NCBI GenBank assembly: GCA_018238155.1
Contig: JABCTZ010000006.1
Coordinates: 1 to 64,000 of the forward strand
DNA: 64,000 bases
Source of the DNA: Candidatus Heimdallarchaeota archaeon
Lineage (GTDB): Archaea > Asgardarchaeota > Heimdallarchaeia > JABLTI01
Direction of reading: 5' to 3'
The notes beneath the pieces were generated by a model that did not search any database, was not told where the DNA came from, and was given only the letters and a program-made list of their open reading frames with translations. Of the stretch, positions 35,807 through 52,892 are shown in pieces. Each line of letters starts with the position of its first letter. Position 1 is the first letter of the stretch. The position numbers and the translations under genes are program-made.

Positions 35807-36604
35807 TCATGCTGTTTTTTCTTCTATTGGCAACTCTTTGTAGAATTTGCGTAAGAAATTTGGCATAACATAACCTAGATATGCAAATGAACACATTAGA
35901 ATCGCTGCAACGTAAGCAATATAATAGAATGGTGTAAATCCTTCTATTGAAAAGATAGGTATTAATCCTTCGCTAGCTGTCAAGAAGTCAAGAGCAAAAG
36001 AACTGTAAGTTATCACTCCAAAAACAGCTGAAAGGATAATAAATTTGAATCCTACTTTTTCCCATCTCAGATTTGCTTCTTGAAGTGGACGAATAGTGAG
36101 GAACATCAAAGTGAAGAACGATATGAAAGTTAATGCTAAATGATAAAGTGTTGGTGAAAGAGCATAAACTGGATTAGGCCAGGTATTAAATGTAGCTCCT
36201 ATTAATAAACCAATTGTGATACCATTTAATGCTCCAAAAATTATTGGAATAAGCATTTTCGTTCTTCGGAAAATGGGCGATTGTGAGAAAACAATAGCAA
36301 CAAATATCATAATGAATACATTACTAATAGCTGAAAATCCATAACCAATATTGATTCCAAGAGCACTAAAGCCAATAGTAGTATAATTTGTATTTGTAAT
36401 TATCTCATTATCAATTAGATATTGAATTAATTTACCAAGAAATAAACTAAGAGCTCCAATAACCCAGGCATTAAAAGCAATTGCTAATGTAAGTGCTGCA
36501 ATTCTCTTACGATCGAAATATCTATAGTATAAAGCTGCTACTACAAATGAAACAGCTAGAAAAGCAATTCCTTCTGTGATAACTGCTTCGAGTGGGATAT
36601 CCAT
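35807..36604 (-). CDS. Seven-TM membrane protein (paralog 2)
   Basis: Seven hydrophobic segments. Shares YFDR, GIN.GY.FSA.SN, FRRTK, LNGITIG, YHL.LTF, LRWE..GF and AYLGY.MP with its neighbour. Confidence 0.8.
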   Translation of the reverse strand: MDIPLEAVITEGIAFLAVSFVVAALYYRYFDRKRIAALTLAIAFNAWVIGALSLFLGKLIQYLIDNEIITNTNYTTIGFSALGINIGYGFSAISNVFIMIFVAIVFSQSPIFRRTKMLIPIIFGALNGITIGLLIGATFNTWPNPVYALSPTLYHLALTFISFFTLMFLTIRPLQEANLRWEKVGFKFIILSAVFGVITYSSFALDFLTASEGLIPIFSIEGFTPFYYIAYVAAILMCSFAYLGYVMPNFLRKFYKELPIEEKTA

Positions 36605-36605
36605 T

Positions 36606-37409
36606 TTAATTAACCTCCGGCTCTTTTAGTAAATTACGTATTCTCGTTGGCATAGCATATCCAAGATAAGCAAATGTGGACATTAGGATAGCAAATACCC
36701 AACCAAAATAATTAAAGACAGTATACCCTCTGCCAAATATCTCCTTGAAGAATAAAGGAAATATGAGGTCTAAAACGAACATAACATAAATCATTATACC
36801 TGAAAAACCATAAAGGATAATGAAGGTAAAACCTGCTCGTTCCCATCTCAAAGTAGCCTCTTTTCTTTCTTTAAAACTAAGAGCTAAGAGTAATGTGAAT
36901 GAAAAGAATGTTAAGAGCAAATGGTATATTGTTTGAGCAATTGGATATTGGGGATTATATAGTTCGGTTGGATCTACAGCGTCCAAGCTTAAAGAAAGAG
37001 TATTAATAATTAAACCAATCGTAATTCCATTAAGAATTGCATTCACTAGTGGTATTGTTTTCTTGGTTCGTCTAAACATTGGTGCTTGAGAAAAGATTTG
37101 TGATATGAACAAAACCATAAATATGTTACTTGCTGCAGAGAAAAGATAACCAAGGTTGATGCCATATCTTGCGTATTGTATTTCTCCTGCTAATTGTGGC
37201 ATATTAATGTAATGTAAAATAAAACCGAGAAATACTAAAATTCCACTTATCCCCCAGAAGAGGAAGGTTAATGCTAAAGTTAAAGCAGGTTCTTTTCTTC
37301 TATCAAAATATTTCATGAAAAGCATTATAACAACTGTAAATACAGCCAAAAGCACAAATCCTAATATAATTATTGATCCAAGTTTTGGATCTTGAGGTAA
37401 GTCTGCCAT
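36606..37409 (-). CDS. Seven-TM membrane protein (paralog 1)
   Basis: Same shared motifs; 1-bp gap to paralog 2. Confidence 0.8.
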   Translation of the reverse strand: MADLPQDPKLGSIIILGFVLLAVFTVVIMLFMKYFDRRKEPALTLALTFLFWGISGILVFLGFILHYINMPQLAGEIQYARYGINLGYLFSAASNIFMVLFISQIFSQAPMFRRTKKTIPLVNAILNGITIGLIINTLSLSLDAVDPTELYNPQYPIAQTIYHLLLTFFSFTLLLALSFKERKEATLRWERAGFTFIILYGFSGIMIYVMFVLDLIFPLFFKEIFGRGYTVFNYFGWVFAILMSTFAYLGYAMPTRIRNLLKEPEVN

Positions 37410-37424
37410 GATGTTTCACTCCAA

Positions 37425-37880
37425 TTACCAGAGAGCATCCTTCATTTTGTCAATTGGTGACAATTCCTTCTGGTGCCACTCGATCATTTCTAGCATAGAT
37501 TTCTTAAATTCAGATATTTTGACAATATCAAAATTATTTGGATCATAAACCTTCTCAAATTTTGTTGCTATTTCCTTAGCAACGCCTTCCCATTGAGATA
37601 ATATTTTATCATCCATGGATGTTTTAAAAACAAAAGTTACTGAAACTCCTTTTTCAGCACAAATTTGAGCTATTAGTTGATCATTTAGACCCAACTTGAA
37701 AATGCCTTTCTCAAGTTTCGTTGCAATGTCTTTTATTTGGTCAAGAAAGCCCATAAAAGTATCAGAATTTGGATCTATATCACCAATCTGAGTTGTAATT
37801 AAGGCTTCTCCACTATCTTTTGAGAAAATAATCGCGTTCTCGATCATAGTAGTTTTTTTCTCCATAAAATGGATAAACAT
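37425..37880 (-). CDS. Longin/roadblock-like small protein
   Basis: IENAIIFSKDSGEALI (beta-beta-G), helix TFMGFLDQIKDIATKL, strands, then final helix AKEIATKFEKVY. Probable start at 37865 or 37847. Confidence 0.6.
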   Translation of the reverse strand: MFIHFMEKKTTMIENAIIFSKDSGEALITTQIGDIDPNSDTFMGFLDQIKDIATKLEKGIFKLGLNDQLIAQICAEKGVSVTFVFKTSMDDKILSQWEGVAKEIATKFEKVYDPNNFDIVKISEFKKSMLEMIEWHQKELSPIDKMKDALW

Positions 37881-39147: not shown

Positions 39148-42100
39148 TTATTTCCTTCCAACTATTCTTGGATTGATTTTTCCTTCTAGAATTAAGTATT
39201 CAATTTCTCTCTGAATTGTTTCAGGTGGGAAGTTCATTTGGGTTGAAATTTTGTTAATGTCAATATTTCCAATGTCTTGATAACCTAATGCAAGCTTCGC
39301 GACTTCACTTCTGAGTTGAAGATATGAATAGAGTACTGTTGTGTCTTTATTAAATACTGCCATAAACTTTTGTGGAATGTATTCGATACGAATTACGCTA
39401 AGAATTTCATCTAACCGTAATTTTGTTTTATTAGCTAAATCTGCTACAATAGCTTTACCATTATCTAATAATTCTTTATCACACCAGTGCAATACTTCAG
39501 AAAGTATATCACTTGAAACAAAAAGACCAATTTTGAAGTACTTGCCTGTGATTTCTTTATGAGCATAAAGATCTTGAATTAGAACGTTGATTAAACGAGA
39601 TATTGGTTGATTTTCTAAATATTCATAAATACTAATTCTTCCTCGCTCATAAATATCTGCTCGAACTTGTTCCTTATAGATATCAATGAATTCTTGGATA
39701 TTCCTTTGGAATTTGATATTTACTAAGCTTGCTTGTTGTAGTGTGAGGGAAAGATTTCCTTCTTGAAGGGCAACCAAAGATTTCTTGAGTGCAATAAATG
39801 TCCTATTTTTCAAAACACGTTGGTCATTAATTTCTTCAATAATTGTTTGAATTGCTTTGAAATCCCAAATACGTAATTTCTTAAGTGAGGATCTGATTAG
39901 AAGATCTAAGAATAAGTTAATGATTTTTGAATCAGTAGTCGCTTTAAGATATTTGAACATTAAGTCATCATAAATTTTGGTTTCTTCTATAAAACTACCA
40001 GTGCGTTCGTAAATATCTGTTGCAGCAAAAACATATGGAATTGAATGGAAGATAAGATCCTTCTTACCTGATTTAAGCATCTTTTTAGCTTGATCCAATG
40101 CTTGAAAGGCAAGGTCTTCTGCTTGTTCAATCATATTTCTATTGGCATAAACCATTCCGGGAACAAGATAACAGATATACCCATCTTCAATGGGTACAGT
40201 GTTGAAGAGATTCTGGATAGTTGTTGCTATGATTTTTATGCTCTTCTCATCTTGAGAGAGTTCATAATTTTCAAGAGAAGTTGAATAATAATATAATCCT
40301 TCTTTGAATTTGTCTTCTTTAATTTTCTGATCGCCAATACTTGCACTTATCATTGCTACATCAGCAATTAAACGATTATCACCAAAGATTTCATATATTC
40401 TTCCAGCAGCTTTCAGGAAATTGATAGCGTCACTTAATTTATTTTTATCTGCTGCAAGTTGACCTAGAGCTATACAATGTTTTCCAAGGTCAATAATTCT
40501 GTCTCGTTGTCCAAAATTATTCATTGCCGTTGCCAAAGTTTCCATTAGGACATCAAGACCTTTGAAACGTTTTTTCGTTAAACTTTCAAGTATAACTAAT
40601 AATTCATCAATGATTGCAATTCCAATTTGAGTTTGTTTGGATAGAGATGCTAATCGCAATGCTTGGTCTTCAATTCTTATTGCTTTATCGAAAGTAGTTG
40701 ATTTTTGATGTAATAATTCAGCAGTCTGATGCCAAGCTATAATCATATTTGCATAATCCAAATTGCCAAGAATGGATAGAGGGTAATTTGAGTTGATAAT
40801 TGAGCTGAGTAATTTGATGATATTTTCTCTTGCAAAAATTACTAAGTCAACATTCTTTTCTTCAGATATATCTTGGTTTAATTGTATTAATGGAAATGCT
40901 ACTACAGGATAGAACTCTTTTTCTGATAAGTTGATAACTAGATTGATAGTTGTACTTAGTAATTTCATACCATCTTTTCTAGTTGAAGATTCTAGGCAAA
41001 GAATCCTTCCAGTTTGAGCTAATGTGCCAATAAACTTTCTACTTTCTTTGATATCATTGACTTCTAGATAGATACTTCTTGCTTGATTTACTGTTGCATC
41101 AATTAAGTCAAATTTCTTATTTTTAATTAAATAATTAACATGGTCTAAATAATTATTTGCAATATTAATCTTTAATTTAGAATTACTCGCTAAATCTGCT
41201 GCTGCATTTGCAGCATCTAAAATACCTCTGGCTATTCTTGGTCCACGTGAAATGAGTAATTTTTTACCATAATCAGTTAGTATTTTAGATAAATGTTCAA
41301 GACCTTTCTGATTTTTTGTTTGACTCAAGAATTTAGTTGTTGAATCAATAAATTGTTCAATAAGCTCTAATCGACTATCTTCATCTATTATGCTCTTTTC
41401 ATATTGTGCTCCTATTACTTGTGAAATGGTTTCAAGATAGTTAGCTCCTGCTCGAGAGGTTTTTTCGAGTTTAGTTTCATATTGTACGATAAGCTCACCA
41501 CCAGCATTCATAAATTGAATGCCTAAAATTGGGTCTCCTTCTTTAATTAATTTCAAACCAAAATCAATGCATCTGTTTCCTACTTTTGGCAGATAATTGT
41601 TTAAACCTGCTCTAGTAGAAAGTTCCATTGCTTTTGAGAAATAGAGAGCCGCGATATCGAAATTCCGTTCATTGAGCATTTTACCTCCTTGGTTGATAAA
41701 GATTTCAGAGATCACCATGATTCTTTCAGTTCGTTGAAGGAAGATATACAATCCACCGGCAAGCTCAACTAAAGGCATTCCAGTATTAATGTTATTATTA
41801 TCAATTTGTTTTCGACCTTCAGCAATGAGTTCATTAACAATATCTAATGATTCTTTGGTTAAGTTCCCTTGAGCTAAGAGATGAACACCATTTCTAAATG
41901 CTTCAACTGCAGCTGCCATTTCATTTCTTTGCATAAGAGTTCGTCCTAAATCAATACTGATTTGACCGATACCTGTAAGATCATTTATTGTACGGAGGAT
42001 GCCAATACCTGATGCAAGAATAACATGAGATGCTTCGAGTTTTCCATCTTCTCTAAGAATGATACCTTGATTTCTACATACAGTAGCTAAGTGCTTAATT

Positions 42101-45100
42101 GAAGATTCATCCGAGATTTGAGCTATTTTCTCCATGCCCTTGTCAATTAATCGGCTACCACCAACATTTCTTCCATAAGAAATCAATAGAGCTGCTCCAA
42201 CAAAACATTTCTCAACACCACCTGTCATCTCTCCTTTAGCAAAGAGAGCATCAATTGCTGTGTTGATTAAATGGAATCCTTCTTTGGCTCTTTCAGCTTC
42301 AATGTAATTCTTTGCATGTGTGAGTAGCCTTTCAGTGCCGAGGAACAAATCATCAGCAGAAGTCATTGCTTCAAAGGCAATTGGTAACATTTTGAATGCT
42401 ATGTCATATTCTCTTTTCTTCTGGAGGTCTGTGGCGATTTTAAATATAGAATTCGCTAGATGGATTAATCGATTATTCTTTCCGGTCCTTCTAAAGAGAG
42501 TAAAGCTTTCCTTGAATAATTCTATAGATTTCTCATGATTTTTAATCTCATAAAATGTTTGACCTTCAATCATACAAAGACGGCCTGTGAATTCTTCGCC
42601 AACTATAGCACCAATAGTAAGTGCAACTTCCCATAATCGTAATCCAGCATCAGGATTATTACTTTTGATATTTGCAGTACCAAAAGCCATGACCTTAAGA
42701 GCAGTTTCTTCTACTTCTTTCATACGGTTATTTTGTTCCAGAATTTTAGCTATTTTTGCATAACAGAGAATGCTATTTTCAATACTATTTGCAGCCATCA
42801 ATTGATCAACTAACTCTTCTAAAAATTGAATAGATTCATCCACACGTTTAATTTCAGTTAAGATTTCTGCTCCACGAATACCCCATGAAACAGCTACTTC
42901 GTTATTCTTTTGTTTGAGAAACTCTTCACAAGTATTGATACAGATGCCCGCAGCTTCAATATCTTTATTCACGCTTCGAAGAATTTCAATTGTGAGATTA
43001 ATGTAGTTTGTTGCTGGGAGGAGTTCACTTTCAACAATTAAATTACTTGAAATTATTGCTACTTCATTTGCAAGTTGACTAAGCTGTTTCAAATTTTGGG
43101 TTTGAATATATGCTTTGTAGGTTTTTTCTAAACTAATTAAAGCAGCATCATGTAGGTTTTCTTTTGAGAAAATTTGCCATTCTTTTAGTTTAATTTCTTC
43201 GTTAAGTTTTAAATCGTTATTTTGTAAAGCAAAATTTTCAGCTAACTGAAAGAATTCTTGGCTTCTTGTTGACCTAACTCCTCTATCTAATTTTATTGAA
43301 GGAATAATACCTTGAACAATTTCTGTTGCTATATCGATTATTTGGTTGATGAGTTTGGTTAATTTTTTATCTTTTTTTAGACTTAGAAAGATATCACCTG
43401 TTTCTCTGAATTTTACTAACCCTTCTTCCAAATTATTATTTATAATATGATATTCGCCCATTGAATTTTGTATTTCAGCAATTGATGAAGGATCTTTTAA
43501 AATAACGTACAATTCTATTGCTTTGTCTAAAAGAACAAGACCAAATTGAGGTGTGTAGCTTTGAAGGAATTTTTCACCTTCAATTCTTGCTGTTTGAGCT
43601 CCTTGGACAGTTTTATCTGCTTTATTGAGAGCTTCTATACCTAGAGTTATCATGCTATTCGATTCAACAAGCTTGTCTTTTTTGAAGAGATCTCTTCCTT
43701 TTTCAATAATTTCAGCACCAACTATAGCTGCGTGTCTAACTGATGAAGAAAGATACAAATCAATTGACTTTGAGTAATATTTTATCGAAAGACCAAATTG
43801 TTCTTTAGATAGAAATTCTTTTGCTGTTTCATATGAACGACCTGCTTCTGCCTCTGTGCTAACTGCTCCATCTATCTGAATGGCTACTTGAAATCCTTTT
43901 TCAGCGTTAACAAAATCACCTTTATTCAAGATGGTTGTAAATGTTTCAAAACAATGATTTGCTACACCCGGATAAATCTTACCTTTTTCGGGTATTTTAT
44001 TCTTTACAGAAGCAAGAAGGTAATATTCCAAACTCTTTTCGTGATTATCATGTTCAGAATGATATCTTGCTAGTGCTGAAAGAATTCTTGCTGCTTCTTC
44101 CGGTTGATCCGCTTTCGTGAATTCAACAGCTCCTTCCTCAAAAAGAGGGTCTGCATAATCAGTAAGATTCTTTCGCAAGAAATCAGCTGCAAAACTAACC
44201 ATAATTCTAGCAGCTCGTTCATATTCTCCTGCCTCTGAGAGTACTTTGCCACTCCCTCGAGCAGATGCAAGCGTGATATCATTTAGTTCTTCAATATTGA
44301 ATTTTCTGATATTAGTTATATGATCTTCAATAGTTTCTACTGCTGAATTGATATTTCGTTTAATTAAGGCTCTAGAGAGCGTTTCATTAAAATCACAAGC
44401 AGCACTCCATAATCCTTCTGCATTGATAATATCGCCATTTTTTATACACTGTTCTGAGTACTTCGTTGCCAACATCACTAATGGTTTGAATTTTTGTTCT
44501 TGGAGTTCTGCAGGAATTGTTTGAGCAGCAAGCTTTAATCGGTCTAATGCAGTATCAAAATGTCCTTCAACAAGTAGCTCATCTGCAAGCTTGAGGTAAA
44601 CATCTGCTGCGTCTTCGTTTTTGCCTGCTTTTATATAAGCTTCAGCTGCTTTTGTTGCTAAATCAATGCCTGTCTGAAGATTTCTAACTTTAAACATTGG
44701 TTTCCACGAAGAATCAAAAGTATCTGCTGCTAGCTCTATTTCTCCTAATTCCATAAAGAAATCCGCACAAAGACGATACATTATTTCAGCATAATGGAAA
44801 TCATTTTTATCAAAACGTTCTCGAGCGAGCTGTCGTATTTCACTGGGAATATCTACTCTTTCTTCGCTTTCAGGCAGTTCTTTTAATGGGTCAATCATTT
44901 TTTTGAAAGCTTCAGTTGCAAGTTGAAATTTGTTATATTTTAGTAGAAGCTCAGCTTCTTTCTTATAAACTAATACCTCAAAATTACGGTCAATTAATTT
45001 TCCAATTTCAATTGCAATATTAAAATAATCTCTGCCAATTGGATACTGTTCTATTGTGTGAAGTTGTAATCCCATAGAAATAATACTATTTCCAAATTCG

Positions 45101-46074
45101 ATGATATCATCTTTTTTACCAATTTCGATATAATATTCTTTGGCCATATTATAGTAGGGAATTGCTTCACTGTAAAGTTTCTTTTCAAAAATAGCTAATC
45201 CAATTAAAGCTAACTCACGTGCAAGAACGGTAATTGCGGGAATTGCATCACGAGAAATACAAATATCTTTTGCATGTTTGATTAAACGAACAGCAGTGCT
45301 ATTTTCATACTGAACTGCATCTGATTTTACAAGTATGTTTTCGGGGTCTAAAATCTCAGGGATTAAGGTTTCAATGTGCACGATAAAATTTTCCATTACC
45401 TTTTCAGCTGCCAAGATAATAATTTCCTTATTATCAGGTTTCATTTCAAGAAGTAGCTTTACAGCTTCATCAAGAGCTTTATCTCCTTTTTCAGCTTGCT
45501 TCCCATCAAAATATTTTTGAGAGAGTGAGGTGTAGAAATCAATAGACCCAATTTCATAATCAGCTTTTTTATAAAGTGCTTTTGCTTTCTCTAAATACTC
45601 TTCCCCAATTTTTTCTTCCTCGGTTTTTACTTTTACTTTTAACAATATTTGGATGACATTTTCACTATATGCTTTTGCTGCCTCTAAGTATTTTTCTTTC
45701 GGATCTTTGCCGATTTTTTCATATTGACTTGCAATTGTTTCATTTATTTTACCCACTAAATCATACCTGTTTTCTCTTGTCTGGAAAATTATGGCTGCTT
45801 TCTCTAAGAATTCTTCAGCACTAGTTTGAAATGTTTCAAAATTCGAATAGTCCAATTTTTCACTAGCATCAATAAAATAATTAATCGTTTGAATCAATAT
45901 TTTTGAATCATTTTTAATAACTACTGCTTCAGCTATTTCCAGTAATAATCGAGATGCTTCTTCATGATTATCTTTCTCAATCAAAGTATGAATTAATCTA
46001 AAGAATTCATCCACTGCTGCTCTTGTTGAACCAGAATTTAGGAGATGGCGTGCTTTTTCAATATTCTCAAACAT
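39148..46074 (-). CDS. Giant (2308 aa) SNAP/TPR alpha-solenoid protein with C-terminal winged-helix (UFL1/PCI-like) repeats
   Basis: Continuous helical repeats (AAEAYIKAGKNEDAADVYLKLA). C-terminal DKELLDNGKAIVADLANKTKL and ISTQMNFPPETIQREIEYLILEGKINPRI. Confidence 0.8.
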   Translation of the reverse strand: MFENIEKARHLLNSGSTRAAVDEFFRLIHTLIEKDNHEEASRLLLEIAEAVVIKNDSKILIQTINYFIDASEKLDYSNFETFQTSAEEFLEKAAIIFQTRENRYDLVGKINETIASQYEKIGKDPKEKYLEAAKAYSENVIQILLKVKVKTEEEKIGEEYLEKAKALYKKADYEIGSIDFYTSLSQKYFDGKQAEKGDKALDEAVKLLLEMKPDNKEIIILAAEKVMENFIVHIETLIPEILDPENILVKSDAVQYENSTAVRLIKHAKDICISRDAIPAITVLARELALIGLAIFEKKLYSEAIPYYNMAKEYYIEIGKKDDIIEFGNSIISMGLQLHTIEQYPIGRDYFNIAIEIGKLIDRNFEVLVYKKEAELLLKYNKFQLATEAFKKMIDPLKELPESEERVDIPSEIRQLARERFDKNDFHYAEIMYRLCADFFMELGEIELAADTFDSSWKPMFKVRNLQTGIDLATKAAEAYIKAGKNEDAADVYLKLADELLVEGHFDTALDRLKLAAQTIPAELQEQKFKPLVMLATKYSEQCIKNGDIINAEGLWSAACDFNETLSRALIKRNINSAVETIEDHITNIRKFNIEELNDITLASARGSGKVLSEAGEYERAARIMVSFAADFLRKNLTDYADPLFEEGAVEFTKADQPEEAARILSALARYHSEHDNHEKSLEYYLLASVKNKIPEKGKIYPGVANHCFETFTTILNKGDFVNAEKGFQVAIQIDGAVSTEAEAGRSYETAKEFLSKEQFGLSIKYYSKSIDLYLSSSVRHAAIVGAEIIEKGRDLFKKDKLVESNSMITLGIEALNKADKTVQGAQTARIEGEKFLQSYTPQFGLVLLDKAIELYVILKDPSSIAEIQNSMGEYHIINNNLEEGLVKFRETGDIFLSLKKDKKLTKLINQIIDIATEIVQGIIPSIKLDRGVRSTRSQEFFQLAENFALQNNDLKLNEEIKLKEWQIFSKENLHDAALISLEKTYKAYIQTQNLKQLSQLANEVAIISSNLIVESELLPATNYINLTIEILRSVNKDIEAAGICINTCEEFLKQKNNEVAVSWGIRGAEILTEIKRVDESIQFLEELVDQLMAANSIENSILCYAKIAKILEQNNRMKEVEETALKVMAFGTANIKSNNPDAGLRLWEVALTIGAIVGEEFTGRLCMIEGQTFYEIKNHEKSIELFKESFTLFRRTGKNNRLIHLANSIFKIATDLQKKREYDIAFKMLPIAFEAMTSADDLFLGTERLLTHAKNYIEAERAKEGFHLINTAIDALFAKGEMTGGVEKCFVGAALLISYGRNVGGSRLIDKGMEKIAQISDESSIKHLATVCRNQGIILREDGKLEASHVILASGIGILRTINDLTGIGQISIDLGRTLMQRNEMAAAVEAFRNGVHLLAQGNLTKESLDIVNELIAEGRKQIDNNNINTGMPLVELAGGLYIFLQRTERIMVISEIFINQGGKMLNERNFDIAALYFSKAMELSTRAGLNNYLPKVGNRCIDFGLKLIKEGDPILGIQFMNAGGELIVQYETKLEKTSRAGANYLETISQVIGAQYEKSIIDEDSRLELIEQFIDSTTKFLSQTKNQKGLEHLSKILTDYGKKLLISRGPRIARGILDAANAAADLASNSKLKINIANNYLDHVNYLIKNKKFDLIDATVNQARSIYLEVNDIKESRKFIGTLAQTGRILCLESSTRKDGMKLLSTTINLVINLSEKEFYPVVAFPLIQLNQDISEEKNVDLVIFARENIIKLLSSIINSNYPLSILGNLDYANMIIAWHQTAELLHQKSTTFDKAIRIEDQALRLASLSKQTQIGIAIIDELLVILESLTKKRFKGLDVLMETLATAMNNFGQRDRIIDLGKHCIALGQLAADKNKLSDAINFLKAAGRIYEIFGDNRLIADVAMISASIGDQKIKEDKFKEGLYYYSTSLENYELSQDEKSIKIIATTIQNLFNTVPIEDGYICYLVPGMVYANRNMIEQAEDLAFQALDQAKKMLKSGKKDLIFHSIPYVFAATDIYERTGSFIEETKIYDDLMFKYLKATTDSKIINLFLDLLIRSSLKKLRIWDFKAIQTIIEEINDQRVLKNRTFIALKKSLVALQEGNLSLTLQQASLVNIKFQRNIQEFIDIYKEQVRADIYERGRISIYEYLENQPISRLINVLIQDLYAHKEITGKYFKIGLFVSSDILSEVLHWCDKELLDNGKAIVADLANKTKLRLDEILSVIRIEYIPQKFMAVFNKDTTVLYSYLQLRSEVAKLALGYQDIGNIDINKISTQMNFPPETIQREIEYLILEGKINPRIVGRK

Positions 46075-49564: not shown

Positions 49565-51766
49565 TTGAGCGACTATATACATACTATCAGCTTCAAAGTT
49601 CTCATAGACTCTGAAGTTGTAGACTTTACGTTTAGAGTTCCACGAGGAACACTGCTCATCCAAGTATTGGATGAACTCGAAACAACATTGAAAATTCAGC
49701 CAAGAGTAATTGCTACAGTAAATCATGATGGGGAAATAATGATTGTTGAAAACCATTATTCCACCATTGAGTATCTTATACAAAAATTTGGGACTGATTT
49801 TTATGCTGGTGGATCAAGTGTTGTGACATTCAATCATGGAGAATACATTGTTGATTTAGAAGTTCCAGAAGCAATTCCATTTGCTTCATCCTTTAGAACA
49901 GCGAGCAAAAGCTTCTCAATATTACCAAGAGATGTCTCTATTGAGAGACAAGATGGTCAAGTAATGGACTATGAAATATTTCGTTTGCCCACTGCTTTTG
50001 TGCTAAATTCTTGGGGAAATTTTTATCGAATAGTTGATCGCGAATTGGGTGATCCTTTAATAGATCCACCAAAAGTGGACGGAGAAGTATCCTCTCTAGA
50101 TTCAAATCAAACTTATGAAGAAAGAACAGAATCAGAACAAACTTCAATGGTCTACCCACCGAAATTTGATGGTTCGGAATCAACAGATACTGTTTCAGAG
50201 GTATCGGAATTAGATATTTTGACTGAACATTTTGTTGAATCCTCCTTACATGAAGATGATCAAGAAGAATCCGATTCTGAACATGTTGAGAGAACTTCTC
50301 CTTGGCAAAAAACGGAAGACGAGGAGCCCTCTTCAAGTTCAATTGAGCTTGAAGAAGAACCAACAATTGAATCATTGATGGATGAAATCCTCCTTGAAAG
50401 TAAAACAGATCAAAACGATGATGACGTCGACGGAGAATTTCTAACTCAAGCAATTGAAGAACCATTGGCAGATTCTGTTGTTACAGATGTTTCACAGTTT
50501 GATGAGGAATCTGATGACATTCCCCTAAGTGAAGTGATTGATTTTGGCGATGAAATAGATGCTTTAGAGGATGAAACAATTATTGATGAGACGGAAGAAG
50601 AAGATGCTTCAGAAATCCCTGCTCAAGATATTTATGAAGTATCAGTCCTCGAGGAAAATGGTTCAGAAGAACAAATTTTTGATGAATTTGTTGATGAAAC
50701 AGAAGAAATAGCTGCTGATCTTCCAATTGAAGAAACTTCTTCAACATTTGAGGAAATGATTACAACTTCTTTTACAGAAGAGAAAGAAGAACCTGAAGAG
50801 GAAGAAGAATCTGAGGAAGAAACATTTGTTTCTCAACCATTTGATGACGAGCAATTTATTGAATCCATCAAAGATCATTATGTTGCAGAAGATTCACGCG
50901 ATGAAATACTAACATCCACAGCTGAAACAGAAATAATTGAAGATGGTGTTGAAGAAGAATTAGAGAATGAACCTCAAGCATTAGATGATTTGACGGGAGA
51001 TTTGGTTGTTGAATCTGAAGATATTTTCGAATCTGTTGTCAAAGACATCGATGAAGCAATTGAACAATCTGAAATTACTCCTATTCTGAAGGATTTACCT
51101 TTAGATCAAAGACTGGAGATTAGAAAACAAGAGCTAGTTTCTCTTGAAAAAACTTTGAGTGAAGAAGAGAAACTAAAAGTGAAGATACAACAAAGAATGA
51201 TTTCCATTGATTATTACGAAAAAATGAATCCACGAAAAGTATATTCTATATCCGTGAAAATTTCACCTACTCTTTCAACTAAACAAAATGAACATAATAT
51301 TAAACTGAAGATTGTACCAATATTTCCAGGTTGCTATGTAACACCTCACCAAGAGATTGTTGAAATAAATGGTGAAAGTGATATTGATGTAGAATTTACT
51401 GTAACACCTCTAATTAGCCAAGGAACGGTCAACGGAAAACTTGGCATTTGGTATAAAGGAAGGAATATTCTTAATATTAATACTACTTCAAAAATAAGGA
51501 ATTATTCGGGTTGCATTGTTAGTAGTATATTGGCATTTCTATTTGGAATAATGCCTTTTCTATTTTTAATATTTAATTTTAATTTTAACAATGCTTTAGC
51601 AACAGGATTAAATAACATCTTTTCAACTACATTGACAGCTAATCTGTTTGTGATTTTTGAAATAATTTTGCTAGTAATTTTTCTTGGTCTAATGGTTGGG
51701 TTCATTTTCGTAGGGAAACCAACCAAACGAAAAATAAAACGCAAATTTTATCCTGTAGCTCCTTGA
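49565..51766 (+). CDS. Membrane-anchored protein: two tandem UFM1-like beta-grasp domains, acidic linker, beta-rich domain, two C-terminal TMs
   Basis: aa 7-83 and aa 84-162 resemble each other and UFM1 (SFK, VPE..PF, DG, G...RI..R..G). About 350 aa D/E-rich. TTG start with GAGGT RBS. Confidence 0.7.
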   Translation: MSDYIHTISFKVLIDSEVVDFTFRVPRGTLLIQVLDELETTLKIQPRVIATVNHDGEIMIVENHYSTIEYLIQKFGTDFYAGGSSVVTFNHGEYIVDLEVPEAIPFASSFRTASKSFSILPRDVSIERQDGQVMDYEIFRLPTAFVLNSWGNFYRIVDRELGDPLIDPPKVDGEVSSLDSNQTYEERTESEQTSMVYPPKFDGSESTDTVSEVSELDILTEHFVESSLHEDDQEESDSEHVERTSPWQKTEDEEPSSSSIELEEEPTIESLMDEILLESKTDQNDDDVDGEFLTQAIEEPLADSVVTDVSQFDEESDDIPLSEVIDFGDEIDALEDETIIDETEEEDASEIPAQDIYEVSVLEENGSEEQIFDEFVDETEEIAADLPIEETSSTFEEMITTSFTEEKEEPEEEEESEEETFVSQPFDDEQFIESIKDHYVAEDSRDEILTSTAETEIIEDGVEEELENEPQALDDLTGDLVVESEDIFESVVKDIDEAIEQSEITPILKDLPLDQRLEIRKQELVSLEKTLSEEEKLKVKIQQRMISIDYYEKMNPRKVYSISVKISPTLSTKQNEHNIKLKIVPIFPGCYVTPHQEIVEINGESDIDVEFTVTPLISQGTVNGKLGIWYKGRNILNINTTSKIRNYSGCIVSSILAFLFGIMPFLFLIFNFNFNNALATGLNNIFSTTLTANLFVIFEIILLVIFLGLMVGFIFVGKPTKRKIKRKFYPVAP

Positions 51767-52145: not shown

Positions 52146-52892
52146 TCAATGATATTTAACATTTGAGCAATTGCTCTTAGATTTAATATTGAGCGTTTCA
52201 AAGAGCATTGAACCAATATCTATGAACAATAGGCTATTAATTAACAGTGGTTCTTCTTTTAGCATTACTCTAGTAGCTTCTGCAACTTGTAGGCTACCAA
52301 TTAACTGAATTATACTTGGATGAATACCTGTAATAGATGAAACTGGAAGTGTTTTATCATCAACATGACCAAATAAGCATTCAATACAAGTACTACCTCG
52401 AACAACAGTCATTGCATTCCCAGTTAAACCACTAACTGCACCAAAGAGGAAAGGTAAATCTTTTTCTAAACACTTTTTATTTATTGCAAATCTTGGTGTG
52501 AATCTATCTAAGGCATCAATAACAAAATCTACATTATCAGTCACAAGTTCAACATTTTTAGTAGTAATCTCTTCCTGAATGATTTTAATTTCAACATCAG
52601 GATTAAGATATTCTAAGAATTTTTTAGCTGCTTGTACTTTGGATTTGCCTACATCCTTTTCACGGTAAAGCATTTGTCTTTGCAAATTTGATAATTCAAC
52701 GACATCTTTGTCAATTAATCGCAAGTAACCTACTCCTAAAGCAGTAAGTTGAGTAGCAGTAACAGAACCTAGACCTCCTGCTCCAACAATAGAGACTCTA
52801 GCTCTTCGTATTTTTTTCATACCCTCAACACCAATTGACGGGAGAACAATAAAACGAGAATATCTGCCTGTAGTCAAGTCCTTTTCGTTCAA
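52146..52892 (-). CDS. ThiF/MoeB/E1-like adenylyltransferase
   Basis: RYSR, VGAGGLGS, DKDVVELSNLQRQ, DALD...R and CIEC. Confidence 0.9.
   Translation of the reverse strand: MNEKDLTTGRYSRFIVLPSIGVEGMKKIRRARVSIVGAGGLGSVTATQLTALGVGYLRLIDKDVVELSNLQRQMLYREKDVGKSKVQAAKKFLEYLNPDVEIKIIQEEITTKNVELVTDNVDFVIDALDRFTPRFAINKKCLEKDLPFLFGAVSGLTGNAMTVVRGSTCIECLFGHVDDKTLPVSSITGIHPSIIQLIGSLQVAEATRVMLKEEPLLINSLLFIDIGSMLFETLNIKSKSNCSNVKYH

Follow-up and report, generated by a model that had tools for sequence, protein, structure and literature searches.

The window analyzed here is a 64,000-nucleotide (nt) stretch of DNA from Candidatus Heimdallarchaeota archaeon (GenBank assembly GCA_018238155.1, contig JABCTZ010000006.1, positions 1 to 64,000 of the forward strand), with a G+C content of 31 to 36% and with archaeal genes for a class III signal peptide protein, CGI-121, PAC2, and an Alg9-like GT22 protein. 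At positions 39148 to 46074, the reverse strand carries a single ATG-started open reading frame (ORF) of 2308 codons plus a stop, whose product, here called the giant protein, is acidic (261 kDa, pI 5.5) and has no hydrophobic segment of transmembrane quality. Its predicted architecture is that of a very long helical solenoid ending in three tandem winged helices (WHs) that resemble those of UFL1 and DDRGK1. No published description of the protein was found, and the fusion is a family-specific variant. The parts of the gene, and one feature of a neighboring gene, are as follows:

39148 to 46074, reverse strand: whole giant gene, 2308 amino acids (aa) plus stop, with full-length orthologs
39718 to 46074, reverse strand: helical-hairpin solenoid, residues 1 to 2119 (860 to 2119 modeled; 1 to 859 predicted from sequence and from collinearity with the paralog)
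41425 to 42924, reverse strand: most conserved solenoid block by column identity, residues 1051 to 1550, a candidate for the main partner-binding surface
42388 to 42561, reverse strand: TPR_12, residues 1172 to 1229, the sole Pfam match above cutoff
39718 to 40140, reverse strand: last solenoid hairpins, residues 1979 to 2119, SNAP-like and, with the first WH, a PCI-like unit according to fold matches
39514 to 39717, reverse strand: WH1, residues 2120 to 2187, from the AlphaFold2 model, net charge +1
39325 to 39513, reverse strand: WH2, residues 2188 to 2250, from the AlphaFold2 model, net charge -2
39151 to 39324, reverse strand: WH3, residues 2251 to 2308, from the AlphaFold2 model, three helices and no wing hairpin
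49565 to 50089, forward strand: two UFM1-like repeats at the N-terminus of a 733-aa neighbor, given as context and only putatively linked to the giant protein

A preliminary description of this locus, made from the sequence alone, had proposed the 2308-aa frame, and its conserved homologs bear it out. A word-indexed search of 5.8 billion proteins returned 23 homologs, 47 to 85% identical and all from Heimdallarchaeota or other Asgard metagenome-assembled genomes; most are full-length (2306 to 2334 aa), and four of the five shorter ones are marked partial or lie on short contigs. Because these homologs are mostly full-length and of near-equal size, the gene is real and is held under strong constraint on both length and sequence. 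The best-conserved stretches among orthologs are residues 1051 to 1550 (71 to 88% column identity per 50-residue window versus 69% overall), 350 to 650, 1901 to 1950, and the final WH, in which residues 2251 to 2300 reach 87% column identity.

The C-terminal architecture comes from an AlphaFold2 model of the last 330 aa, built on an alignment (A1) that combined 10 orthologs with 8 paralogs, all extracted from genome loci. The model has a mean predicted local distance difference test (pLDDT) score of 90 and a predicted template modeling (pTM) score of 0.75, with pLDDT values of 88 to 90 across residues 2120 to 2308. Helical hairpins run up to residue 2119 and are followed directly by the three WHs, agreeing with the preliminary description, which had counted about three such units at the C-terminus and placed them at about 39148 to 39680, close to the 39151 to 39717 found here. 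The canonical H1-b1-H2-H3-b2-b3 order is complete in WH1 and WH2; WH3 ends twelve residues after its third helix, without a wing.

In structure searches, the array as a whole is most similar to that of UFL1-DDRGK1. A Foldseek search of the PDB with the C-terminal model ranked the human UFL1-DDRGK1 chimera first (8b9x; E = 1e-5, probability 1.0), and VIA, an independent all-against-representatives structure alignment, aligned the same entry with a Z score of 11.1 and a root mean square deviation (rmsd) of 5.7 A over 168 residues (model positions 155 to 328), spanning all three WHs. Native UFL1 on the 60S (8ohd, 8qfc, and 9gy4) was among the Foldseek matches (rmsd 5.5 A over 174 to 181 columns), and full-length UFL1 on the 60S gave VIA Z scores of 8.8 to 9.6 over 191 to 200 residues, covering UFL1 residues 27 to 237. 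Other matches were weaker: SelB, an RNA-binding tandem-WH protein, had a Foldseek E value of 7.6e-3, and single WHs of transcription factors had VIA Z scores of 7.4 to 8.9. The tandem WHs of ESCRT-II, cullin WHB, and kite proteins were absent from the matches listed, which does not exclude them.

Language-model (ESM) features point in the same direction. For the last 209 residues, the three best matches were E3_UFM1_ligase clusters (0.89, with 184 of 256 features shared), and such clusters likewise came first for the C-terminus of the paralog (0.90, 194 of 256), which is only 15 to 23% identical; neither score exceeds the 0.9 line of the tool, and both are treated as leads. Searches of Pfam and PDB with the C-terminus, both as a single sequence and as family profiles A1 and A3, returned nothing significant. 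Two orthologs, however, lie at about the 23.2-bit cutoff of PF09743 (E3_UFM1_ligase): that of G073 scored 22.1 bits (E = 1.4e-4), with WH2 and WH3 on profile positions 109 to 227, and that of G082, from a second genus, scored 15.7 to 22.0 bits, with WH1 to WH3 on positions 29 to 226. When in-frame stretches were summed in a six-frame scan of 83 Heimdallarchaeia genomes and 14 control genomes, both orthologs reached the cutoff (23.8 and 23.3 bits), and none of the 14 controls matched at an E value of 1e-3 or below. The Pfam register (WH1 to WH3 on profile positions 29 to 227) is consistent with the structural register (UFL1 residues 29 to 236). In addition, hhalign aligned the WH array with an Asgard family of small proteins resembling UFL1, DDRGK, and PCI proteins, to which a 278-aa protein of this genome belongs (80% probability, E = 1.4e-5, 90 columns). 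Judged from the sequences, the link to the UFL1 array appears weak but register-consistent, and the WH array of the giant protein is probably remotely homologous to the UFL1-DDRGK1-type array of Asgard archaea and eukaryotes. The likeness to UFL1 suggested in the preliminary description has thus held up in the fold match, in the ESM ranking, and in the two orthologs.

A resemblance to PCI proteins, also suggested there, survives in altered form. Subunits of the proteasome lid, COP9 signalosome (CSN), and eIF3 were matched by Foldseek (E = 7e-4 to 1e-2, probability up to 1.0), and VIA aligned Rpn12 (Z = 9.1, rmsd 7.9 A, 192 aa) and Rpn6-type chains (Z = 8.8, rmsd 7.3 A, 171 aa), although such Z scores are common for helical repeats. 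The Rpn12 alignment covers model positions 1 to 215, so that the PCI-like unit, according to the model, is the solenoid end plus WH1 rather than the final WH that had been proposed. The PCI hidden Markov model (HMM; PF01399) scored 12.4 bits on WH3 (E = 0.59, not significant; cutoff of 22 bits), and it matched 6 of 18 family members (best E = 0.0089), a signal that adds little because the same model matches all 14 control genomes. By sequence, the giant protein would be placed in neither the UFL1 nor the PCI family.

The remainder of the protein is helical repeat. The only Pfam match in the giant protein is TPR_12 (residues 1172 to 1229; E = 1.9e-8, 34.8 bits versus a cutoff of 30.1), and a search of NCBIfam gave no match. 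A second AlphaFold model, of residues 860 to 2050 and built from a 16-sequence alignment (A4), consists of 57 helices and nothing else (pLDDT 87.8, pTM 0.44), each of about 15 to 22 residues with three-residue turns between them. Across the two models, residues 860 to 2119 form an unbroken helical-hairpin solenoid of the TPR/SNAP type. The modeling therefore supports this architecture at least from residue 860 onward, with no other domain in the modeled part, and extrapolation from it would give the whole solenoid about 100 helices. These two segmental models are of the kind that the preliminary description had called for, and they yielded the WH array and the solenoid, respectively.

Among known folds, the solenoid is most like SNAP proteins at its C-terminal end. 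Its last 155 residues (1979 to 2133; model positions 1 to 155) have gamma-SNAP as their best VIA match (2ifu; Z = 11.6, rmsd 3.8 A, 146 aa) and Sec17 as the second (Z = 10.8 to 11.2; Foldseek E = 9e-3), and HAP40 aligns with the C-terminal model at a Z of about 10. Pfam detected no SNAP domain (PF14938; cutoff of 25 bits) in the giant protein itself, but its paralog in the same genome has one (residues 964 to 1119; 47.7 bits, E = 1.9e-12), and some orthologs carry precomputed PF14938 matches; the SNAP-like repeat body of the preliminary description is thereby supported. Farther upstream, residues 860 to 2050 match long eukaryotic TPR scaffolds in Foldseek (top E values of 1e-11 to 1e-8), including Ski3 (8.7e-11), subunits of intraflagellar transport complex A (IFT-A), Ctr9, separase, and clathrin. 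Because the template modeling scores are only 0.1 to 0.15, these matches represent generic repeat similarity, and no long-TPR scaffold was accepted as a specific relative of the body.

The giant protein appears, from sequence searches, to be restricted to one Heimdallarchaeial family, which answers the question of taxonomic distribution raised in the preliminary description. With the C-terminal 400 residues as a query, a match was found in all 11 other genomes of the family, including those of a second genus, and in the other families of the class there was nothing beyond one marginal match (E = 7.7e-4), to a 518-aa frame that is unrelated. When a profile of the C-terminal 330 aa was run exhaustively with HMMER against 1.84 billion cluster representatives, it recovered 10 in-family proteins and one marginal outsider, with no distant relatives or eukaryotic homologs. 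The outsider, a 787-aa metagenomic protein (P0035; E = 5e-4), begins with a zinc ribbon and continues with about five PCI-like WH units in tandem.

Each of the family's genomes also contains a second gene, of 2302 to 2316 codons. In the genome studied here, this paralog (P0025; 2306 aa) lies on contig 20 (L027:5218-12138, reverse strand), away from the giant gene and beside unrelated genes, and its collinear alignment with the giant protein spans 2077 residues, of which 19% are identical (E = 2e-42). Residues 1 to 859 of the giant protein, which lie outside both models, are part of this collinear alignment beginning at residue 294. An old duplication in which equal length has been kept suggests that the two proteins are structural equivalents and, perhaps, that they form a pair. 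Upstream of the paralog, on the same strand and at a distance of 135 nt, is a gene for a 724-aa protein that has an FG-GAP beta-propeller, a zinc ribbon, and weak matches to the BBS7 and BBS2 propellers (L027:12274-14448, reverse strand). The two genes stay together in 7 genomes of the genus; this adjacency was rejected as evidence for a propeller-solenoid pair because the whole neighborhood is syntenic within the genus.

On these grounds, we favor, at a probability of roughly 60%, the reading that the giant protein is a non-catalytic scaffold that docks through its UFL1/DDRGK1-type WH array, probably working with its paralog. It would be a cytosolic, non-enzymatic 261-kDa protein formed as one continuous TPR/SNAP-type solenoid ending in the three-WH array. 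The solenoid, above all the block at residues 1051 to 1550, may bind other proteins or peptides in extended form, in the manner of Ski3, Ctr9, and SNAPs, and the array may dock the scaffold on a protein or complex through WH-WH or WH-surface contacts, like those of UFL1-DDRGK1 and of PCI subunits. WH3, which lacks a wing, could be completed or capped by a partner, and the two paralogs, being of equal length, probably act as a pair.

Each of the systems that supply these parallels shares some features with the giant protein and lacks others. UFL1/DDRGK1 (PF09743 and PF09756; 8b9x, 8c0d, 8ohd, 8qfc, and 9gy4) has the same three consecutive, head-to-tail WHs, and the giant protein and UFL1 are both without catalytic residues. 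In UFL1, however, the array stands at the N-terminus, ahead of a different helical domain, whereas in the giant protein it makes up the last 189 residues after a 2119-aa solenoid, and no UFC1-binding N-terminal helix can be assigned. PCI subunits (PF01399; Rpn12, Rpn6, and CSN1, CSN2, and CSN4) likewise have TPR-like helical repeats running straight into a WH, but the giant protein is five to ten times longer, has three WHs instead of one, lacks the C-terminal bundle helix, and has no linked MPN partner. SNAP-family proteins (alpha- and gamma-SNAP and Sec17; PF14938) and HAP40 share the twisted hairpin sheet of the solenoid end, but SNAPs, which work together with NSF and SNAREs, are about 290 aa long, whereas the giant protein reiterates this repeat type about 50 times and showed no link to NSF or SNAREs. 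Uninterrupted TPR-type solenoids of more than 1000 residues also occur in Ski3/TTC37, Ctr9, and IFT-A, where they serve as assembly platforms, although none of these ends in a WH array or is related in sequence to the giant protein.

Several observations weigh against the scaffold reading. The giant protein itself has no PF09743 match at an E value of 1 or even 10 or below, and profiles A1 and A3 recover no UFL1 chain from among PDB sequences. The match to the UFL1-DDRGK1 array, at an rmsd of 5.7 A, stands only about 2 Z units above the best match to a single WH (BrxR, 8.9). The structure models cover residues 860 onward, with residues 1 to 859 outside them, and a pTM of 0.44 leaves the solenoid's long-range geometry uncertain. 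Finally, the giant gene is monocistronic, convergent with a GHMP kinase gene and divergent from that for a beta-CASP RNase, so that the context offers no operon partner, and the flanking genes were rejected as such.

The nearby genes nonetheless include one of possible relevance. Some 3.5 kb from the giant gene, positions 49565 to 51766 of the forward strand encode a 733-aa acidic membrane protein, which has transmembrane segments in its C-terminal part and, at the N-terminus, a pair of repeats each about 80 aa long. Ufm1 (PF03671) is the top family for this N-terminus in 9 of 9 orthologs (best E = 7e-4; 0.031 for the protein itself), a signal below Pfam's 27-bit cutoff, and the protein is the genome's only PF03671 match (13 bits). 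A profile of these orthologs touches PDB UFM1 chains at an E value of about 2. The neighbor occurs in 10 of 11 family genomes (versus 11 of 11 for the giant protein), the genome without it being 69% complete, and the order giant/beta-CASP/GT22/UFM1-like/ThiF E1 is kept in the second genus (G082:C196), which is weak evidence because whole neighborhoods are conserved within the family. The link between the giant protein and this neighbor is thus circumstantial, and a functional tie is possible but of low probability. After the second repeat, the neighbor has an invariant Gly-Asp pair, the Gly of which we take, from an ungapped comparison with human UFM1, to stand at the position of the conjugating Gly of UFM1, a lead only. 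Two free-standing ORFs of 95 to 99 aa in another Heimdall family (L069, G007:C1:533572-533811; L070, G006:C1:448820-449062) resemble the first repeat weakly (25% identity, E about 2e-3) and may encode small ubiquitin-like (Ubl) proteins.

Components of a UFM1 pathway are otherwise sparse in this 90.7%-complete genome. Searches of it found no free UFM1, no UFL1 above cutoff, and no UFC1, the best PF08694 signal being only 18.5 bits in a 37-aa frame with stops. A ThiF-family E1-like enzyme of 248 aa (positions 52146 to 52892, reverse strand; PF00899, E = 1e-67) lies nearby, but it scores 112 bits against E. coli ThiF/MoeB, 104 against Uba1, and 86 against UBA5, so that its identification as UBA5 was rejected; no Ubl gene adjoins it. 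Because the genome lacks UFC1 and free UFM1, an E3 role for the giant protein is unsupported. The preliminary description had offered a scaffold-type E3 or a tether, and of this the E3 part has no support, given also that the array is C-terminal, unlike that of UFL1, whereas a scaffold or tether remains a sensible reading.

The DDRGK model (PF09756) matches a 278-aa protein in the genome (17.5 to 17.8 bits), which is a better UFL1/DDRGK1-like candidate than the giant protein and probably corresponds to the UFL1/DDRGK1-like protein described earlier for Asgard archaea. This protein (L030:1273-2109, forward strand; G000:C7:309746-310582) has a Lys-rich N-terminus and three to four tandem WHs, is encoded beside the gene for ribosomal stalk protein P1, and scores 26.7 bits against Pfam PCI and 22.0 against E3_UFM1_ligase. 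Most PF09743 matches in the class are small proteins of this kind (252 to 284 aa), which pass the cutoff in many Heimdallarchaeia genomes. UFL1-type arrays also occur on proteins of 800 to 1400 aa in other Heimdall families, and the two that were translated, of 1398 aa (L090:3266-7462, reverse strand) and 915 aa (L091:1684-4431, reverse strand), are membrane proteins with PF09743-positive tandem WHs, transmembrane segments, and C-terminal zinc ribbons, a layout reminiscent of membrane-anchored DDRGK1. Because such arrays sit on other large Heimdall proteins as well, the UFL1-type WH module is promiscuous. Elsewhere in the window, positions 35807 to 37880 of the reverse strand encode a 151-aa protein without a Pfam match followed by two paralogous multi-transmembrane proteins of 265 to 267 aa, separated by gaps of 15 nt and 1 nt.

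The UFM1-like neighbor raises the alternative that the giant protein functions within an archaeal proto-UFM1 system, in which the WH array recognizes the neighbor's UFM1-like domains, or a form activated by the E1, and recruits the scaffold to the membrane, much as UFL1/DDRGK1 operates at the endoplasmic reticulum (ER). The neighbor's standing as the genome's sole PF03671 match, the Ufm1 signals of its orthologs and of their profile, the shared phyletic range, the gene order kept with the ThiF-type E1, and the report of Ufm1 homologs from nine Asgard clades (PMC12962969), in some cases with several regions hit, would all fit. Against this, there is no UFC1-like E2, the E1 is generic, the Ufm1 signal is below cutoff and its domains are internal to a membrane protein, the genes lie on different strands with unrelated genes between them and form no operon, their synteny is that of a single family in which entire neighborhoods are syntenic, and the paralog is encoded elsewhere; we therefore regard this alternative as rather unlikely. 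A bolder version, less likely again, would assign the giant protein and its paralog, as the scaffold arm, to a UFM1-like system that is older than eukaryotes and may be non-covalent. Their WH arrays would read the neighbor's two UFM1-like domains, and a platform of a quarter megadalton would thereby be anchored at a membrane in which ER-type glycosylation enzymes also reside.

The PCI-like fold matches would instead suit an assembly subunit in which the solenoid-WH junction oligomerizes and the paralogs hetero-oligomerize by WH edge pairing, as in the lid, CSN, and eIF3, and so build up a cage or platform of very large size. The presence of two equally long, collinear paralogs in each genome, and the PCI HMM matches in a third of the family members examined (6 of 18), are in keeping with such a role, but the HMM is nonsignificant in the giant protein and indiscriminate among controls, the rmsd values are 6 to 8 A, PCI proteins have one WH and then a bundle helix rather than three WHs without a terminal helix, and no MPN partner is linked, leaving this role quite doubtful. 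More improbable still is a lineage-specific TPR protein whose WHs bind DNA or RNA, as a regulator or a nucleoid- or RNA-associated factor, with the likeness to UFL1 reflecting a common geometry of tandem winged helix-turn-helix domains. Single WH units do match such domains of transcription factors nearly as well (BrxR, 8.9; CapW, 7.6; Z-alpha, 7.7 to 7.8), SelB is among the Foldseek matches, and WH1 of the paralog is strongly basic (+7, pI 11.2). The WHs of the giant protein, however, are near neutral (+1, -2, and +1 for WH1 to WH3), which argues against nucleic acid binding; PF09743, the ESM features, and the whole-array fold all favor UFL1 over transcription factor families, so that the C-terminus does not match generic helix-turn-helix domains alone; and a 2100-aa solenoid belongs to no known regulator architecture.

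Earlier work bears on a docking scaffold of the kind that we favor. An Asgard origin has been reported for UFL1 and DDRGK1, whose role in these archaea is unknown and possibly independent of UFM1 (Picchianti et al., PMC10183829); the Ufm1 homologs mentioned above come from a 2026 structural-modeling study (PMC12962969); and TPR and HTH/PCI domains have been mentioned in Asgard ESCRT-linked proteins (Makarova et al. 2024, PMC10936438). Because the giant protein is restricted to one family, its bearing on the eukaryotic ancestor is limited. It nevertheless adds a new piece to the archaeal prehistory of the eukaryotic UFM1 pathway: in Heimdallarchaeia, the UFL1-type WH array is a docking module that is mobile, and the giant protein joins it to the longest solenoid of the TPR/SNAP type found for that array. 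The giant protein exists in duplicate, its length has stayed fixed, and its gene is a neighbor of that for a UFM1-like membrane protein. The giant protein and this neighbor provide a concrete pair for asking whether UFL1-UFM1 recognition existed before UFM1 conjugation; should the WH arrays indeed read the UFM1-like domains, the UFL1-UFM1 recognition pair would predate conjugation by UFC1.

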